Virus record (IMG/VR): IMGVR_UViG_2630968639_000008
Reading direction: 5' to 3' (one strand)
DNA: 33,922 nt
Source: a virus
Lineage: Duplodnaviria > Heunggongvirae > Uroviricota > Caudoviricetes
In this document: in pieces, positions 17,269 through 33,922 of the stretch
Layout of the letters: each line of letters opens with the position of its first letter
Position numbering within the stretch: the first letter of the stretch is position 1
The notes under the pieces: generated by a model
Told to the model about the DNA's origin: nothing
Databases searched by the model: none
What the model saw: the letters and a program-made list of their open reading frames with translations, nothing else
Translations under genes and position numbers: made by a program

Positions 17269-17562
17269 ATGAAAAAAATGTTGTTTTCTGCCGCTCTGGC
17301 AATGCTTATTACAGGATGTGCTCAACAGACGTTTACTGTTGGAAACAAACCTACAGCAGTAACACCAAAGGAAACCATCACCCATCATTTCTTCGTTTCG
17401 GGAATTGGACAGGAGAAAACTGTTGATGCAGCCAAAATTTGTGGCGGCGCAGAAAATGTTGTTAAAACAGAAACCCAGCAAACATTCGTAAATGGATTTC
17501 TCGGTTTTATTACTTTAGGCATTTATACTCCGCTGGAAGCGCGTGTGTATTGCTCACAATAA
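17269..17562 (+). CDS. bor: Bor lipoprotein (serum-resistance type lysogenic-conversion protein)
   Basis: Track ORF trimmed to ATG at 17269: MKKMLFSAALAMLITGCAQQ... has a signal peptide and lipobox (LITGC); 97 aa; antisense to the lysis genes as in lambda. Confidence 0.85.
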   Translation: MKKMLFSAALAMLITGCAQQTFTVGNKPTAVTPKETITHHFFVSGIGQEKTVDAAKICGGAENVVKTETQQTFVNGFLGFITLGIYTPLEARVYCSQ

Positions 17563-19336: not shown

Positions 19337-20434
19337 ATGAAAAAATTAACAGTGGCAATTTCTGCTGTAGCTGCATCAGTACTGATGGCGATGTCTGCTC
19401 AGGCAGCTGAAATTTATAATAAAGACAGTAACAAGCTGGATCTGTACGGGAAAGTTAATGCTAAGCACTACTTCTCCTCTAATGATGCAGATGATGGTGA
19501 TACTACTTATGCCCGTCTTGGCTTCAAAGGTGAAACCCAAATCAACGATCAACTGACTGGTTTCGGTCAGTGGGAATATGAATTCAAAGGCAACCGCGCT
19601 GAATCTCAAGGTTCCTCCAAAGATAAAACCCGTCTTGCCTTCGCTGGCCTGAAATTCGGTGACTACGGCTCCATCGATTACGGCCGTAACTACGGTGTAG
19701 CATACGACATCGGTGCGTGGACTGACGTCCTGCCAGAATTCGGTGGTGACACTTGGACTCAAACCGACGTGTTCATGACTCAACGTGCAACTGGTGTTGC
19801 AACCTATCGTAACAACGACTTCTTTGGTCTGGTTGATGGTCTGAATTTTGCTGCTCAGTACCAAGGCAAAAACGATCGTAGCGATTTCGATAACTACACT
19901 GAAGGTAACGGTGATGGCTTCGGTTTCTCTGCTACCTATGAATACGAAGGATTCGGTATCGGTGCAACTTATGCGAAATCTGATCGTACCGACACTCAAG
20001 TTAATGCAGGGAAAGTTCTTCCTGAAGTATTTGCTTCCGGTAAAAATGCAGAAGTTTGGGCCGCAGGTCTGAAATATGACGCTAACAACATTTACCTGGC
20101 CACTACCTATTCTGAAACCCAGAATATGACTGTATTTGCTGATCACTTCGTTGCTAATAAAGCCCAAAACTTCGAAGCTGTTGCACAATATCAGTTCGAT
20201 TTCGGTCTGCGTCCGTCCGTTGCTTACCTGCAATCTAAAGGTAAGGATCTTGGAGTATGGGGCGATCAGGACTTAGTCAAATATGTTGATGTAGGTGCAA
20301 CCTATTACTTCAACAAAAATATGTCTACTTTCGTTGATTACAAAATCAACCTGCTTGACAAAAATGACTTCACTAAAGCACTCGGTGTAAGCACTGATGA
20401 CATCGTTGCTGTAGGTCTGGTTTACCAGTTCTAA
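19337..20434 (+). CDS. OmpC/OmpF-family general porin (prophage NmpC/Lc-type), apparently intact
   Basis: 365 aa from ATG 19337 (track ORF starts upstream): signal peptide [29 protein letters not shown], porin beta-barrel hallmarks, C-terminal ...VGLVYQF; long AT-rich promoter region upstream; antisense to Q and S as in DLP12 nmpC. Confidence 0.85.
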
Positions 20435-22718: not shown

Positions 22719-23120
22719 TTATTTTAACTCATAGATCAGACAGTCAACGATTTCTAAACCATTTACCATAGAATTAGAAACGCGAACTTTACCATCGTTG
22801 ACTCTAGCAAATCCTTTTAACATTTTATAAATAAAAGCTGAATCCCCCTTAGCCTCAATTGCTTCTAATGGTATCGGCTTATACTTTTTTGATATGCTAT
22901 TTCTATTTATCTCACTGATTTTTCTATATATTTCTGCCGGTCCACGTTCTGAGAAGTCACTGATAACTAAAATATATCTCCAAGATAGATCTGGGTAATA
23001 AAACCACATTGCAGCATCAATAGTTAAATTCTGTAACTTGAGTTTTTTTAATAAAAATTGACCTGAGAATTCCATATCTTTTGTCAACTCTCTGCCGATT
23101 ACCAGTGTGCTTTTACCCAT
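22719..23120 (-). CDS. Hypothetical protein, downstream partner of the HEPN-like gene (overlapping, translationally coupled)
   Basis: 133-aa ORF; ATG at 23120 with GGAG 9 nt upstream; overlaps the upstream gene by 22 nt; AT-rich codon usage; no motif recognised. Confidence 0.5.
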   Translation of the reverse strand: MGKSTLVIGRELTKDMEFSGQFLLKKLKLQNLTIDAAMWFYYPDLSWRYILVISDFSERGPAEIYRKISEINRNSISKKYKPIPLEAIEAKGDSAFIYKMLKGFARVNDGKVRVSNSMVNGLEIVDCLIYELK

Positions 23121-23515
23121 TTCAAAACTCCAGAATTTTGGTCACCTACAGCATCAAACAATTGTTCGGCCATAGCTTTACTTATGTTATTGTCGTATCT
23201 AAATTGCTCGCTCCAGTCTTTAACGACCGACCAGTTAATCTCCAACGAAACATCATTTTTTGCGTCAGCAATCAAAATTTGATGTAAGTTGGCAATTTTG
23301 AGAAGTTGCGACAAATCATGAGTATATGAATCATTTACGACTTTTTTGTTTGGAAACTCATGTTGTAAAAATGACTTGGCAATACAGGCCTTCAATGCAC
23401 ATTCAACTGCATACCCACAAAGATAATATGCACCATGAAAAAAGCCATGATCAAGCAAGCATTTGGCCTCATTAAGCCTAGTGTCAGATAATGCTTCAAG
23501 GTCGTTTTTATTCAT
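23099..23515 (-). CDS. HEPN-domain-like protein (candidate toxin or abortive-infection nuclease)
   Basis: 138-aa ORF; helical pattern GAYYLCGYAVECALKACIAKSF, THDLSQLL and C-terminal RYDNN resemble HEPN four-helix-bundle proteins; AT-rich; TATAAT sits immediately upstream of the ATG. Confidence 0.55.
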   Translation of the reverse strand: MNKNDLEALSDTRLNEAKCLLDHGFFHGAYYLCGYAVECALKACIAKSFLQHEFPNKKVVNDSYTHDLSQLLKIANLHQILIADAKNDVSLEINWSVVKDWSEQFRYDNNISKAMAEQLFDAVGDQNSGVLKWVKAHW

Positions 23516-23979: not shown

Positions 23980-24474
23980 TCATTTCCAATTGCAAGACTG
24001 TGAAATTTTTTCCACAACCTTATCAATCTCAGACAAGTCAAACTCAACTACTTGCATAGTTGATCCATAAGGTTCAAACCCAAAAATAGCTTTTTTATGC
24101 TTAGCCAAGGTCTTTATAAATTGTATTGGTTGTGGAGCAAATGCAGAATCACCGCCTTCCCCACCACCCCAAACACTCTTGACCGGCTTTCCGCCATCTA
24201 ACCGCACTGTAATTCTTGGGTTGTCCGAACCCATATAATCATTGAATGATAAATAGGCATCTGTTTTGTTATCACTACAACGCAACACCAGTGAAGTTGC
24301 ACGATCAGTACCTGCTTTGTTATATGAATCTGGTGATAAATTAAGAGCCACAAAGTCAGTCTGGTCAGTCATTTTATTTATCTCAGACTTTGTTATCCAC
24401 GGCCCTAACTTCTCTACACCAGCATTTGCTGTAAACGAGGCACTTATGACAAAGGCTAAAATAAATTTTCTCAT
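23980..24474 (-). CDS. Hypothetical secreted/periplasmic protein (moron)
   Basis: 164-aa ORF with a signal peptide (MRKFILAFVISASFTANA/GVEK), AGGAGA RBS 8 nt upstream, own terminator; AT-rich. Confidence 0.6.
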   Translation of the reverse strand: MRKFILAFVISASFTANAGVEKLGPWITKSEINKMTDQTDFVALNLSPDSYNKAGTDRATSLVLRCSDNKTDAYLSFNDYMGSDNPRITVRLDGGKPVKSVWGGGEGGDSAFAPQPIQFIKTLAKHKKAIFGFEPYGSTMQVVEFDLSEIDKVVEKISQSCNWK

Positions 24475-28334: not shown

Positions 28335-28715
28335 ATGAGAAAAATCCTAATCGCTGCCATGATGGCATCTCTATTGGCTGGGTGTGCTTCTTCAGGCAAC
28401 CAGCAACTCAAAAATGAAACTGAAACTAGTGTCCAGTCTAAACTTCAGGAAGGTAAAACAACCAAGAATGAGGTTAAATCTTACTTTGGTTCTCCTGATG
28501 CTGTTTCATATACTGACAGTGGAAACGAGATCTGGAAGTACGCCTTTGCAAAAGTAAAAGTTAATGGCACCACTTTTATTCCATTCTATGGATTATTCCA
28601 TAATGGAACGAACGGTACGAAAAAAGAACTTACTATTCTTTTTAACGATGACACGATTAAGAAATACACAATGTCAGAAACCCAAATAAACTCGAAATCA
28701 GGTTGGGCTGACTGA
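28335..28715 (+). CDS. Hypothetical lipoprotein downstream of cI (rex-position moron)
   Basis: 126 aa; signal peptide and lipobox (LLAGC); AT-rich; same strand as cI; followed by a terminator; mid-region resembles a BamE/SmpA_OmlA-like fold only loosely. Confidence 0.6.
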   Translation: MRKILIAAMMASLLAGCASSGNQQLKNETETSVQSKLQEGKTTKNEVKSYFGSPDAVSYTDSGNEIWKYAFAKVKVNGTTFIPFYGLFHNGTNGTKKELTILFNDDTIKKYTMSETQINSKSGWAD

Positions 28716-28918: not shown

Positions 28919-29024
28919 CACCATATCGCAACAACACAACGATACGGCAACCACCTGATTCACCGTTGCGATGACCGCTTAGATCCGCAGCTTGAATTTC
29001 AGCTGGCTTCGGGGAGTGCGAGGG

Positions 29025-29402
29025 ATGAAACGGACGCGTGAACGTCGGTGTGACCAGCTGAAATCAACTCAACATTTCATACCTCAGTCGCTTCAACGAG
29101 GCGGCTTAGTTATGACAACCGGCGGCCATCCACCGCCTGAATACGCGCAGAAGTCTCTATATGTTCAGCAGCCCAGCTTACGGGCAGGAGTTTTTATGGT
29201 TCATCAACATTACGGAACACAGACCGTTAATCGCGGCGCGGTCATGCCAGGAATGCTGGTCAAACACAAAGATGGTACCTGGACTGCATCAGCTAATTTA
29301 CGCGGACGGCTTTATCTGCATCGCGGCATCGAGCGCACTTATACCCGTGATTTGCTCGTGGAAGTTTTTCTCGACGGACGCGGTAACGGCCTGAATCACT
29401 AA
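29025..29402 (+). CDS. Hypothetical first protein of the early-left operon (N position; not clearly N-like)
   Basis: The track ORF begins at TTG 28992; first ATG is 29025 (MKRTRERRCDQ...), Arg-rich N-terminus but the rest does not resemble N; the stop is immediately upstream of the gam leader. Confidence 0.35.
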   Translation: MKRTRERRCDQLKSTQHFIPQSLQRGGLVMTTGGHPPPEYAQKSLYVQQPSLRAGVFMVHQHYGTQTVNRGAVMPGMLVKHKDGTWTASANLRGRLYLHRGIERTYTRDLLVEVFLDGRGNGLNH

Positions 29403-29478
29403 CCCCCCTTTCCTGTTTTCCTAATCAGCCTGGCATTTCGCGGGCGATATTTTCACAGCCATTTTCAGGAGTTCAGCC

Positions 29479-29775
29479 ATGAACGCTTATTACATTCAGG
29501 ATCGTCTTGAGGCTCAGAGCTGGGCGCGTCACTACCAGCAGCTCGCCCGTGAAGAGAAAGAGGCAGAACTGGCAGACGACATGGAAAAAAGCCTGCCCCA
29601 GCACCTGTTTGAATCGCTATGCATCGATCATTTGCAACGCCACGGGGCCAGCAAAAAAGCCATTACCCGTGCGTTCGATGACGATGTTGAGTTTCAGGAG
29701 CGCATGGCAGAACACATCCGGTACATGGTTGAAACCATTGCTCACCATCAGGTTGATATTGATTCAGAGGTATAA
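29479..29775 (+). CDS. gam: Gam (RecBCD inhibitor), 98-aa GamS form
   Basis: [37 protein letters not shown]...; matches lambda Gam. Confidence 0.9.
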
Positions 29776-29780
29776 AACGG

Positions 29781-30566
29781 ATGAGTACAGCACTCGCAAC
29801 GCTGGCAGGGAAGCTGGCTGAACGTGTCGGCATGGATTCTGTCGACCCACAGGAACTGATCACCACTCTTCGCCAGACGGCATTTAAAGGTGATGCCAGC
29901 GATGCGCAGTTCATCGCATTGTTGATCGTCGCCAACCAGTACGGCCTTAATCCGTGGACGAAAGAAATTTACGCCTTCCCTGATAAGCAGAACGGCATCG
30001 TTCCGGTGGTGGGCGTTGATGGCTGGTCCCGCATCATCAATGAAAACCAGCAGTTTGATGGCATGGACTTTGAGCAGGACAATGAATCCTGTACATGCCG
30101 GATTTACCGCAAGGACCGCAATCATCCGATCTGCGTTACCGAGTGGATGGATGAATGCCGCCGCGAACCATTCAAAACCCGCGAAGGCAGAGAAATCACG
30201 GGGCCGTGGCAGTCGCATCCCAAACGGATGTTACGGCATAAAGCCATGATTCAGTGTGCCCGTCTGGCCTTCGGATTTGCTGGTATCTATGACAAGGATG
30301 AAGCCGAGCGCATTGTCGAAAATACTGCATACACTGCAGAACGTCAGCCGGAACGCGACATCACTCCGGTTAACGATGAAACCATGCAGGAGATTAACAC
30401 TCTGCTGATCGCCCTGGATAAAACATGGGATGACGACTTATTGCCGCTCTGTTCCCAGATATTTCGCCGCGACATTCGCGCATCGTCAGAACTGACACAG
30501 GCCGAAGCAGTGAAAGCTCTTGGATTCCTGAAACAGAAAGCCACTGAGCAGAAGGTGGCAGCATGA
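29781..30566 (+). CDS. bet: Bet (Red-beta single-strand annealing protein)
   Basis: 261-aa ORF matching lambda Bet. Confidence 0.92.
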
Positions 30567-31243
30567 TACCGGACATTATCCTGCAGCGTACCGGGATCGA
30601 CGTGAGAGCTGTCGAACAGGGGGATGATGCATGGCACAAATTACGGCTCGGCGTCATCACCGCTTCAGAAGTTCACAACGTGATAGCAAAGCCCCGCTCA
30701 GGAAAGAAGTGGCCTGACATGAAAATGTCCTACTTCCACACCCTGCTGGCTGAGGTTTGCACCGGTGTGGCTCCGGAAGTTAATGCTAAGGCGCTGGCCT
30801 GGGGAAAACAGTACGAGAACGACGCCAGAACCCTGTTTGAATTCACTTCCGGCGTGAATGTTACTGAATCCCCGATCATCTATCGCGACGAAAGTATGCG
30901 CACCGCCTGCTCTCCCGATGGTTTATGCAGTGACGGCAACGGCCTTGAACTGAAATGCCCGTTTACCTCCCGGGATTTCATGAAATTCCGGCTCGGTGGT
31001 TTCGAGGCCATAAAGTCGGCTTACATGGCCCAGGTGCAGTACAGCATGTGGGTGACGCGAAAAGATGCCTGGTACTTTGCCAACTATGACCCACGAATGA
31101 AGCGTGAAGGCCTGCATTATGTCGTGGTTGAGCGGGATGAAAATTACATGGCGAGTTTTGACGAGATGGTGCCGGAGTTCATCGAAAAAATGGACGAGGC
31201 ACTGGCTGAAATTGGTTTTGTATTTGGGGAGCAATGGCGATGA
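30563..31243 (+). CDS. exo: Exo (Red-alpha 5'-3' exonuclease)
   Basis: 226-aa ORF matching lambda Exo; ATGA overlap with bet. Confidence 0.92.
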
Positions 31244-31422
31244 AGCATCCTCACGATAATATCCGGGTAGGTGCGATCACTTTCGTCTACTCCGTTACAA
31301 AGCGAGGCTGGGTATTTCCCGGCCTTTCTGTTATCCAAAATCCACTGAAAGCCCAGCGGCTGGCTGAGGAGATAAATAATAAACGAGGGGCTGTATGCAC
31401 AAAGCATCTCCTGTTGAGTTAA
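31234..31422 (+). CDS. Small early-left accessory ORF (lambda orf60a-like)
   Basis: 62-aa ORF immediately after exo, as in lambda; function unknown. Confidence 0.5.
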
Positions 31423-31586
31423 GAACGAGCATTGAGATGGCACATAGCCTTGCTCAAATTGGAGTCAGGTTTGTGCCAATACCAGTAGAAACAGACGAAG
31501 AATTTCATACGTTAGCCGCATCCCTTTCACAAAAGCTGGAAATGATGGTGGCGAAAGCAGAAGCAGATGAGAGAGACCAGGTATGA
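31395..31586 (+). CDS. Small early-left accessory ORF (lambda orf63-like)
   Basis: 63-aa ORF, acidic C-terminus; position as in lambda. Confidence 0.5.
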   Translation: MHKASPVELRTSIEMAHSLAQIGVRFVPIPVETDEEFHTLAASLSQKLEMMVAKAEADERDQV

Positions 31587-31662
31587 CAACCACTGAATGC
31601 ATTTTTCTGGCAGCGGGCTTCATATTCTGTGTGCTTATGCTTGCCGACATGGGACTTGTTCA

Positions 31663-31878
31663 ATGACACCTCAGCAGGAAAACGCCCTTCGCAGTATTGC
31701 CCGTCAGGCTAATTCTGAAATCAAAAAAGCCAGACAGCAGTTTCCGGATAAAAACGTCGATGACATTTGCCGTAGCGTACTGAAGAAGCACCGCGAAACG
31801 GTAACGCTGATGGGATTCACACCGACTCATTTAAGCCTGGCGATCGGCATGTTAAACGGCGTCTTTAAGGAACGGTGA
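31663..31878 (+). CDS. Small early-left accessory ORF (lambda orf61-like)
   Basis: Track ORF trimmed to ATG 31663 (MTPQQENALRSIARQ...); start uncertain. Confidence 0.4.
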   Translation: MTPQQENALRSIARQANSEIKKARQQFPDKNVDDICRSVLKKHRETVTLMGFTPTHLSLAIGMLNGVFKER

Positions 31879-31976
31879 GCATGAAAAACAAAATCATCAT
31901 GGAGCTACAGGCTCCTTTTTTATTATTCGCATTCACCCTCAAGCGTATTAACCAACAATTCATGGATTAATGAAAG

Positions 31977-32198
31977 ATGGCAGACATCATTGATTCAGCA
32001 TCAGAAATTGAAGAATTACAGCGCAACACAGCAATAAAAATGCGCCGCCTGAACCACCAGGCTATATCTGCCACTCATTGTTGTGAGTGTGGCGATCCGA
32101 TAGATGAACGAAGACGCCTGGCCGTTCAGGGTTGTCGGACTTGTGCAAGTTGCCAGGAGGATCTGGAACTTATCAGTAAACAGAGAGGTTCGAAGTGA
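31977..32198 (+). CDS. TraR/DksA-type C4 zinc-finger protein (lambda orf73-like)
   Basis: 73 aa with CxxC-(17)-CxxC (CECGDPIDERRRLAVQGCRTCASC). Confidence 0.6.
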   Translation: MADIIDSASEIEELQRNTAIKMRRLNHQAISATHCCECGDPIDERRRLAVQGCRTCASCQEDLELISKQRGSK

Positions 32199-32408
32199 GC
32201 GAAATTAACTAGAAGCCAAAGATAAAATCATCGCTGAGCAGGAGAAAATCGCTAACGGAGAAAAGACAGTAAGTCAGTATATGAAAACCGCATGATATCA
32301 TCAGATAAAAATCGATCGTAAAGCGAAATATTCATACCAGAATAAACGAGTCGAGGTAAATTATATTACCTCGATAAATTAACTAAAACTTGCCCGCTAT
32401 ATACTATC

Positions 32409-33011
32409 TCATTCAGTATCATCACGCGCGGTCTGTGCATATGTCACTACCGCACCTAATGTATTAATTTTCTTTTCAACATAGATAATATTATCGTACT
32501 CATAATTGCCATACGGATAGCAAATGCGAATATTCTCATGTAGATCGGGGTCATCCACCTCAGCTCCAGAACAACTTTTTGAACTACCGGAAGTATACCG
32601 ATACGGTGCAACATAAGACGATGTCTCTCCAGGCAAAAAATAAGTTAGTGTTGTAAGGGGTATAATCAGAAAAAATCCAGAAAATATGCATATCCCTGCA
32701 TAAACCTTAAGGTATGCTGACAGACTCTTCCAGCCGCTTTGTTTTACTATCCCCTTCTTAACCCAAAACAGAGATAACAGAAAAGCTATTCCCATGCTAA
32801 ACAGAATGTAATAGTGGGATATACTCTGATTAAGAAACGTGACCCTGTAGATATCTGCCCGCCACCAGAAGAAAAGGAAAATAAAGATCAGCCCTGAAAC
32901 TGTCATGCAAATCAAATAAGGATACGAATCTTTTTTCATGTTTAGCGCCCATAAAATTTTTCCTGCCCCGGACAAATTTACCATCCATTTTTTGCGCAGA
33001 AAATAGCTCAT
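32409..33011 (-). CDS. Hypothetical multi-pass inner-membrane protein (moron, opposite to the early-left operon)
   Basis: 200-aa ORF with about four hydrophobic helices and a Cys/Tyr-rich C-terminal soluble part; AT-rich; start codon uncertain (candidates at 33011, 32984, 32939). Confidence 0.55.
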   Translation of the reverse strand: MSYFLRKKWMVNLSGAGKILWALNMKKDSYPYLICMTVSGLIFIFLFFWWRADIYRVTFLNQSISHYYILFSMGIAFLLSLFWVKKGIVKQSGWKSLSAYLKVYAGICIFSGFFLIIPLTTLTYFLPGETSSYVAPYRYTSGSSKSCSGAEVDDPDLHENIRICYPYGNYEYDNIIYVEKKINTLGAVVTYAQTARDDTE

Positions 33012-33253
33012 TACTTACTGCACAATAATACACAAAATTGCGTAAATTTTTTGCATGGATTTTAGCTCTTTCAGCCGACGTTTAAGGGGTAAATAGCATT
33101 TCCTAAAAGCAACTGCACCAACCCAACAGAATGAGCTACCGCTTACGTTGAGAGCAAAAAAGTGTATAGCAGCAATGAACAGCATCCTCGCACTGACGGG
33201 GATTTCTTTTATCTGAGCTCGCTACGGCGAGTTTTGTTTTATGGAGACAAGAA

Positions 33254-33598
33254 ATGTCAGATTTGGCTATGAAGGTTTTGAAATGGCAATCAACTGGCGA
33301 TGTCGGCATCAGTAGCGCAACTCTTGCCTCAATCGCATGTGGCCTGAAAAAGAATATCTATGGTCATCACTTCGGCGCTCCCCATGACGCAGCAGACTTT
33401 CGGCGATGCGTTGCACTTGTTGAGCAGATTCCAGAAATCAGAGATTCATTCGACAAGGTTGCAAAGCGCGTTCCGGCATTCAAAGGAATCCTCAACGAAT
33501 GGGATTCACTCGTTGCTCTGTTGAAGTCTGAAATGAAGGCGTACGGGAACAAAGCACCAGAGACTTACAGAAGAATCAGCGAGCTACGCAAGGACTAA
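33254..33598 (+). CDS. Hypothetical protein upstream of xis
   Basis: 114-aa ORF, no motif recognised; followed by two hairpin terminators. Confidence 0.4.
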   Translation: MSDLAMKVLKWQSTGDVGISSATLASIACGLKKNIYGHHFGAPHDAADFRRCVALVEQIPEIRDSFDKVAKRVPAFKGILNEWDSLVALLKSEMKAYGNKAPETYRRISELRKD

Positions 33599-33601
33599 CC
33601 C

Positions 33602-33676
33602 GCCTCACACTCGATGAGGCATTTTCATTTATCAAGATATCCAGACCTACCATCGCCGCATCAATGCGGTTTTTTT
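33602..33676 (+). terminator. Tandem rho-independent terminator hairpins
   Basis: GCCTCA / TGAGGC (33602-33607, 33615-33620) followed by ATTTTCATTT; CCGCA / TGCGG (33656-33660, 33665-33669) followed by TTTTTTT. Confidence 0.55.
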
Positions 33677-33721
33677 ATTACCTGATTTGCAGGTTCGATT
33701 CCATATTCGGAGATAGCACTC

Positions 33722-33922
33722 ATGCAACACGAACTACAACCTGATTCACTGGTTGATTTGAAATTCATCATGGCTGATACTGGCTTTGGTAAAACCTTCA
33801 TCTATGACCGGATTAAGTCCGGCGACCTGCCAAAAGCCAAAGTTATCCACGGGCGAGCAAGATGGTTATATCGTGACCATTGTGAATTCAAAAATAAGCT
33901 CTTAAGCCGCGCCAATGGGTAA
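33722..33922 (+). CDS. xis: AlpA/Xis-type excisionase or transcriptional regulator
   Basis: 66-aa ORF with an AlpA-like HTH (GFGKTFIYDRIKSGDLPKAKVIHGRARWLYRD); stop is the last codon of the window; an integrase is expected just beyond. Confidence 0.6.
   Translation: MQHELQPDSLVDLKFIMADTGFGKTFIYDRIKSGDLPKAKVIHGRARWLYRDHCEFKNKLLSRANG

Follow-up and report, generated by a model that had tools for sequence, protein, structure and literature searches.

The segment at 32211-33157 of the DNA analysed here (the window, 33,922 nucleotides from a lambdoid prophage) is very probably a mobile cargo unit with a single gene, which encodes an inner-membrane protein with its N-terminus inside, three transmembrane (TM) helices and a periplasmic domain that carries a pair of cysteines. 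The unit would be self-contained, consisting of a promoter, one gene and a hairpin. Its protein belongs to a new, unnamed family within a familiar class, the membrane proteins carried as prophage cargo.

Table 1. Positions of the cargo unit, its features and related elements in the window
Feature	Position	Strand	Remarks
Conserved coding sequence	32409..32939	-	176 aa plus stop; start at Met25, common to the aligned homologues
24-codon in-frame extension completing the 200-aa ORF	32940..33011	-	Lambdoid lineage only
Candidate promoter	32975..33003	-	-35-like TTTTCT (33003-32998), 17-nt spacer, TG (32983-32982), -10 TAAATT (32980-32975)
Terminator-like hairpin	32341..32374	-	9-bp stem and 6-nt loop (32374-32351), then CTCGTTTATT; 34 nt past the stop codon
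Terminator-like hairpins in the pL direction	33184-33203 (434 tL4, annotated in M60848); 33215-33234	+	Terminator scan; lambdoid backbone, outside the cargo unit
TM1	aa 8-28 (32918-32856)	-	Predicted
TM2	aa 42-60 (32816-32760)	-	Predicted
TM3	aa 78-101 (32708-32637)	-	Predicted
Periplasmic beta domain	aa 102-176 (32636-32412)	-	Predicted
Invariant Cys123	32573-32571	-	Alignment column
Invariant Cys140	32522-32520	-	Alignment column
ea22 remnant	32196..32301	+	First five codons (32196-32210), then non-lambda sequence; left edge of the replaced segment
P2-like (P88-type) cos-proximal backbone fossil	33019..33162	-	Local alignments to L017, L113 (phage P88) and L005; BLAST
Further cargo genes	22719-23515; 23980-24474; 19337-20434; 17269-17562	-; -; +; +	RefSeq-annotated

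The gene and its expression signals

The initial annotation had described a 200-aa gene on the minus strand. An ORF of 200 codons was present at 32409..33011 in the ORF list, which held no plus-strand ORF of 40 aa or more within 32199-33253. The ORF is thus real, but the length did not stand, since the conserved protein has 176 aa and starts at Met25. The homologues, 169-180 aa long in Salmonella, Klebsiella, Enterobacter, Cedecea and Citrobacter, began at the position of Met25 (32939).

The 24 codons in front of Met25 were open in the lambdoid lineage only, and in-frame stops closed them in the P2-borne copies examined. A Salmonella P2 copy (locus L004) had ATG TAG where the window has Met1, and an E. 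coli P2 copy (locus L017) had an in-frame TAA four codons before Met25. The extension contained three variable sites, without third-position bias. Judged from these alignments, it is probably untranslated.

The 176-codon frame was intact in 70 of the 71 near-identical copies, as well as in most of the distant ones. Third codon positions held 14 of the 25 variable coding sites in the close copies, and homologues of 43-78% identity were found in other genera. On these three grounds we interpreted 32409-32939 as a real gene. The Shine-Dalgarno sequence before Met25 was weak in the window lineage and good in the Salmonella copies.

Two other annotations touch the 5' part of the gene. An overlapping ORF of 40 codons (32950-32830, minus strand; start ATG at 32952; frame +1 relative to the gene) is the "ORF-22+" of the old 434 record M60848. 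This frame occurred in the E. coli lineages only; it is probably meaningless, because its ATG is missing from the Salmonella copies. A 112-aa annotation (protein P0141) with an internal GTG start was found on at least 1,000 contigs and was common among the E. coli P2-type copies. It may mean that 5' disruption is frequent among the E. coli P2-type alleles.

The promoter had initially been sought at 33012-33250. That region is AT-rich as described, but it did not qualify as a promoter: the consensus scan gave no sigma-70 site in it, and it consists of P2-like backbone and two plus-strand terminators. The same scan also missed the site that appears from the alignment to be the likeliest promoter, 32975-33003, which lies inside the 200-aa ORF. 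There, TGnTAA(A/T/G)TT with a TTTTCT or TTTCCA box 17-18 nt upstream was found at a fixed distance to the ATG in seven of eight lineages, including the lambdoid lineage, three P2 types, Cedecea and Citrobacter. The predicted transcription start is near 32967. Transcripts beginning there would lack Met1, Met10 and the TTG that the 434 record uses as its start, so that Met25 would come first among the start codons.

On the other side of the gene, the inverted repeat noted in the initial annotation, TCGAGGTAA (32351-32359) and TTACCTCGA (32366-32374), was present, and the terminator scan scored it on the minus strand. The 76-nt region around the hairpin folded more stably than its shuffles (z = -2.2). 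The hairpin was kept in the E. coli P2-borne copies, with one compensatory change of a pair from A-T to G-C, and was absent from the Salmonella P2 copies.

Since the gene opposes pL, it should be expressible in the lysogen, where pL is repressed and transcription would come from its own promoter. After induction, convergent read-through from pL would oppose and dampen it.

Context, distribution and origin of the segment

The window was identical (100% match) to a lambdoid prophage that E. coli STEC409 carries at its dsdC site. On its plus strand lie gam, bet, exo, an orf60a-like gene, an orf63-like gene and a gene for a 73-aa TraR/DksA zinc-finger protein (orf73-like), followed by ORF114 and a TorI-type excisionase gene. 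The antisense orientation reported for the minus-strand gene was confirmed by this arrangement, with gam, bet, exo, the orf73-like gene and the excisionase gene all on the plus strand. The gene does not adjoin xis, contrary to the initial description: ORF114 (33254-33598) intervenes, and the excisionase is of the TorI type. The PHROGs that ORF114 matched all have unknown function.

At the fifth codon of ea22 (32210/32211) the homology to lambda, 933W and many others stopped. The backbone common to Stx phages resumed at about 33158, and these phages share 33158-33247. The intervening 32211-33157 (about 950 bp) stands in place of lambda ea22-ea8.5, a replacement and not a simple insertion. The 27-aa ea22 remnant had no other match elsewhere. 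Positions 32209-32252 weakly resembled (77% over 44 nt) the ead/Ea22-like pseudogene that adjoins the gene in an E. coli P2-like prophage; E. coli prophages of this kind carry such a pseudogene next to the unit (L116 5275-5645).

A moron is an independent cargo unit in a phage genome (Juhala/Hendrix, summarised in PMC3594210). Lambda, 933W and many others share the flanks and lack 32211-33157. The base composition deviates, with a GC content of 0.36-0.40 across 32250-33299 against 0.44-0.54 for the gam-bet-exo block at 29000-32100, in agreement with the AT-rich character noted before. A terminator of its own, a hairpin with a T-rich tail after the stop codon, is predicted on the strand of the gene. 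The cargo status is well supported. The earlier moron reading was borne out by this composition, the antisense position in the pL operon, the terminator-like hairpin, the promoter-like element that travels with the gene, and the occurrence of the gene in the cargo hotspot of unrelated P2-like phages. The positional analogy drawn with sieB also held, lambda sieB being likewise inverted within the pL operon.

The stretch 32200-33247 was 99% identical to phages 434, 434B, 2B8 and mEp332, which are the only GenBank phage records with the gene. Among 5,426 complete E. coli genomes, 905 (about one in six) had at least 80% of 32300-33250. The O157:H7 and O104:H4 examples carried the gene in a prophage at the lambda attachment site, and O103 strains were also carriers.

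Identity to 434 ended at 33247, with ORF114 directly after (33247-33254); the window is without ORF55 of 434, a homologue of lambda p35 (L001 4055-4222). The 434 annotation includes a second "putative membrane protein", CPT_434_35, an ORF of 56 aa at 33015-33185 on the minus strand. This ORF runs across the point where lambdoid backbone meets P2-derived DNA and also overlaps the tL4 hairpin, so it is unlikely to be a gene. Another AT-rich patch (GC 0.36-0.42) separates the repressor gene from kil, at about the N/sieB position in lambda. It holds a 126-aa lipoprotein gene (28335-28715, plus strand) with a BamE-like annotation and the lipobox LLAGC, likely another cargo gene. Other cargo in this prophage, by RefSeq annotation, comprises a HEPN-domain gene with a 133-aa partner, a TagO-annotated gene, a porin and iss/bor.

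Homologues were found in three settings: the lambdoid exo-xis region, the Q-A interval of P2-like prophages, and non-prophage chromosomal loci. No neighbour gene was conserved across the lambdoid, P2 and chromosomal contexts. The Q-A interval lies between the portal gene Q and the replication gene A, next to cos, and is the cos-adjacent locus of old and tin in P2. Homologues in E. coli (78-80% identity), Salmonella (58-70%) and Klebsiella (57%) lay there, and those for which the location between Q and A was checked had 56-78% identity. The gene always pointed away from Q, and its neighbours varied. The chromosomal homologues, of 43-47% identity, were in Enterobacter, Klebsiella sp. and Cedecea. 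In Enterobacter the gene started 16 nt after a LysR-type regulator gene, and the same layout was seen in several contigs.

The homologues in this interval share the locus of the old-tin cargo of P2 and its orientation, away from cos, and the window copy keeps flanking DNA of the P2 type. On the other hand, the window copy sits in a lambdoid prophage, and the hotspot is defined by position and not by mechanism. The Q-A interval was found by experiment to be rich in anti-phage systems, and it also holds non-defence cargo, including partition systems and toxins (PMC9122126). In the text of that paper, the gene matched none of the systems tested.

The P2-type flank was recognised as a backbone fossil (Table 1), in which the P2-like patch gave an alignment score of 23 against a shuffle maximum of 15. 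Phage P88 aligned at 33162-33019, yet it lacks the gene. About 88 nt of the P2-like phages are deleted within window 33019-33162. The P2-like backbone ends in ATTGTGCA repeats spaced by 10 bp, two of which survive at 33018-33035 on the minus strand, their TTGTG motifs at 33035-33021. In P2-like phages without the gene, the match to the flank of locus L005 ended right after the last repeat. The E. coli P2-borne copies shared the window DNA from 33076 to 32302, hairpin included.

The simplest reading of these alignments is that the window copy originated in a P2-like hotspot and that a single crossover took place in ea22-like sequence. On this reading the unit would have been exchanged between P2-like phages, where it occupies the Q-A hotspot, and lambdoid phages, where it occupies the exo-xis region and, in the window and in 434, replaces ea22-ea8.5.

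The ATTGTGCA repeats were present in two to four copies (window 33018-33035; L113 3612-3645; L005 5894-5923). In P88-type P2-like phages, including phages without the gene, they delimit the Q-A cargo hotspot on its cos side, and they could have a role as a packaging element, an activator site or a recombination border. The 434 record labels the TTGTG repeats a CII site. TTGTG-N5-TTGTG occurred once in the window and likewise in 16 of 100 shuffles, and the repeats belong to the P2-like backbone, which has no CII. For these reasons the CII-site label was not adopted, and a CII-dependent promoter is not supported.

The protein and its family

The AlphaFold2 model of the 176-aa protein, built on a 25-sequence alignment, had a pLDDT of 86.9 (90.3 for the C-domain alone). 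It contained helices at residues 5-29, 38-61 and 70-101, and a five-stranded beta domain at 105-171. In the 24 full-length members, the net charge was +1.3 for the N-terminus, +2.8 for the TM2-TM3 loop and -1.5 for the C-domain. This pattern of charge and hydropathy (positive-inside) predicted an N-in, C-out topology. The multi-pass membrane protein of the initial annotation was thus refined by topology and structure prediction to three TM helices, N-in, with a periplasmic beta domain. The short N-terminus (about 7 residues) and the TM2-TM3 loop (about 17 residues) would be cytoplasmic. The TM1-TM2 loop and a beta-barrel of about 75 aa, probably disulfide-bonded, would face the periplasm.

Identity to the window protein among the 24 full-length members was 62-64% in the periplasm-facing parts, versus 38-53% in the TM helices. 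Cys123 and Cys140 of the C-domain were the only residues invariant across the family, in an alignment that reached down to 18-30% identity. The pair fits a disulfide-bonded periplasmic domain. Some family members have a single TM helix, and these kept TM3 and the C-domain. A lipoprotein reading of LICM near the N-terminus was discarded, as that Cys varies among the homologues.

The homology search suggested at the outset produced homologues but no functional family match in Pfam, NCBIfam or PADLOC. Pfam and NCBIfam gave zero matches for the protein, Pfam scans of ten distant family members gave none above threshold, and the system-component profiles of PADLOC-DB v2 gave 0 families at E <= 0.1. 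There was no meaningful match in a sequence-profile search of the PDB, none at E <= 0.001 with Foldseek against viral structures, and none in Rfam within 31900-33922. The combination of an NfeD domain match with SPFH/stomatin gene pairing, looked for as the mark of an NfeD-like protein (TM helices and a C-terminal OB-fold), was not found. The hhalign probability was 0.1% against P22 SieA, 0.09% against lambda SieB and 0.16% against RexB. Homology to these three was ruled out at these values (<= 0.2%).

The only PHROG match was phrog_1416 (E = 2e-50), a phage family without functional information, and it covered residues 113-200 of the 200-aa ORF (TM3 and the periplasmic domain). Its profile has only 90 positions; the sequences behind it were apparently one-TM forms or gene calls that had been truncated. 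When 1.84 billion representative proteins were searched exhaustively with a HMMER profile, only 57 matched. The names in all database sources were "hypothetical" or "transmembrane protein", and the 434 record calls the gene product a "putative membrane protein". The 434 genome announcement does not mention the gene. Searches of the literature on exclusion by 434 lysogens and on exo-xis membrane proteins turned up no report on the gene and no experiment on the protein.

Proposed function and alternatives

We propose that the protein is an envelope factor of the superinfection-exclusion type, whose periplasmic domain would hinder incoming phages in delivering their genomes. We put the probability of such an envelope-level role at roughly 0.4. 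The targets could be incoming ejection or tape-measure proteins, or a host entry factor. Since hardly any of the protein is cytoplasmic and a partner gene is missing, sensing has to take place within the envelope. The exclusion role is favoured because the conserved surface is periplasmic, because the gene is phage cargo, including at a locus rich in anti-phage systems, and because the precedents, SieA and gp15, are entry blockers.

P22 SieA has three TM helices and 162-164 aa, and blocks DNA injection (PMC10883804). Like the window gene, sieA is a single prophage gene with its own promoter (a candidate one here), and its product is an inner-membrane protein of similar size (about 160-180 aa) with three predicted TM helices (PMC10883804). 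It differs in its motif FxRYPxEAxxFNK, predicted to be cytoplasmic and absent from the window protein, whereas the conserved part of the window protein is the periplasmic beta domain with two cysteines. Also, sieA has been reported in P22-like prophages only, between genes 16 and 9. HK97 gp15, the first moron described, is likewise a small inner-membrane protein and an independently transcribed cargo product in a lambdoid operon (PMC3594210; transcription of the window gene is predicted). Its homologues, the YebO relatives, are similarly confined to Enterobacteriaceae, and many of them are chromosomal (PMC3594210). However, gp15 has no PHROG or Pfam link to the window protein, its gene lies in the tail operon, and its function has been demonstrated, whereas that of the window protein is a proposal.

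Several points stand against exclusion. The protein has no homology to known exclusion or defence families. The chromosomal homologues (Enterobacter, next to LysR-type regulators; Klebsiella; Cedecea) suggest a cellular role, and the Q-A cargo is mixed and includes non-defence genes (PMC9122126). Since the P2-type and lambda-type carriers differ in how they inject DNA, simple exclusion of the carrier's own kind cannot hold for both, and the protein would need to act on either a shared host factor or some heterologous phage. The Shine-Dalgarno sequence at Met25 is weak, the promoter is non-consensus, and alleles with the 112-aa annotation may be 5'-disrupted.

The protein may instead serve lysogenic conversion or the host envelope, with no connection to phage entry, and be carried for host fitness, a reading we consider somewhat unlikely. 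It could confer tolerance to envelope stress, a bacteriocin or an antimicrobial peptide, or modulate some host process in the periplasm or the inner membrane. The homologues at non-prophage loci agree with it, as do the partition systems and toxins in the Q-A hotspot (PMC9122126), the envelope cargo of the same prophage (iss/bor, the porin and the BamE-like lipoprotein) and the zero PADLOC matches. The chromosomal copies, however, do not decide the function, since HK97 gp15 is an exclusion protein and has chromosomal relatives (YebO) as well (PMC3594210). Moreover, no domain or fold tied the protein to a known envelope function, and phage accessory loci have captured it repeatedly, a pattern that agrees at least equally well with competition between phages.

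An abortive-infection effector of the SieB/RexB type, which would respond to a late phage signal by collapsing the membrane potential and aborting the infection, is improbable. The small multi-pass membrane protein encoded antisense in the pL operon does recall lambda sieB, SieB and RexB are prophage-expressed membrane proteins too, and membrane proteins are common effectors of defence systems (PMC9122126). But SieB and Rex abort infection from inside the cell, and RexB needs RexA, whereas the window protein has almost no cytoplasmic part, a periplasmic conserved surface and no partner or sensor gene, the neighbours being different in every context. By hhalign it has no similarity to SieB or RexB. 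In the modelled topology most of its mass is in the membrane or the periplasm, which suits a block of entry better than abortion of the SieB type.

Least probable, and by our estimate very unlikely, is that the gene has no function in the lysogen and is either a decaying passenger ORF or a lytic-cycle gene with an accessory part in lysis or DNA entry. In favour of this reading, lambda can grow without the exo-xis region, the window lineage has a weak ribosome-binding site, and some annotations are truncated. The intact frame in the 70 of 71 close copies and the preference of variable sites for third codon positions argue against decay, as does the conservation of cysteines and motifs down to 18-30% identity. 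The gene also runs counter to the early operon and is far removed from the lysis genes; a holin or lysis role was rejected because neither its position nor its strand suits one. Its site in P2-like phages is the locus for non-essential cargo (PMC9122126).

Returning to exclusion, a more specific version is tentative: the protein may be a new kind of envelope exclusion protein, in which the disulfide-bonded beta-barrel would block a delivery step that many phages share, for example a host entry factor of the periplasm or the inner membrane. If true, a block at a common step would explain its carriage by both P2-type and lambda-type phages and its chromosomal fixation in some Enterobacter, Klebsiella and Cedecea lineages.

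The gene has been present in 434, a founding model phage, without a name, a domain or a phenotype. The fossils at its flanks provide a concrete, datable case in which cargo has moved between the lambdoid exo-xis region and the P2 hotspot, and suggest that the former could be mined for cargo, as the P2/P4 hotspots were. If the protein is an entry blocker, it would be a widespread single-gene resistance determinant missed by current defence-finding tools, and would matter when phage host ranges are predicted and when E. coli and Salmonella are treated by phage therapy.
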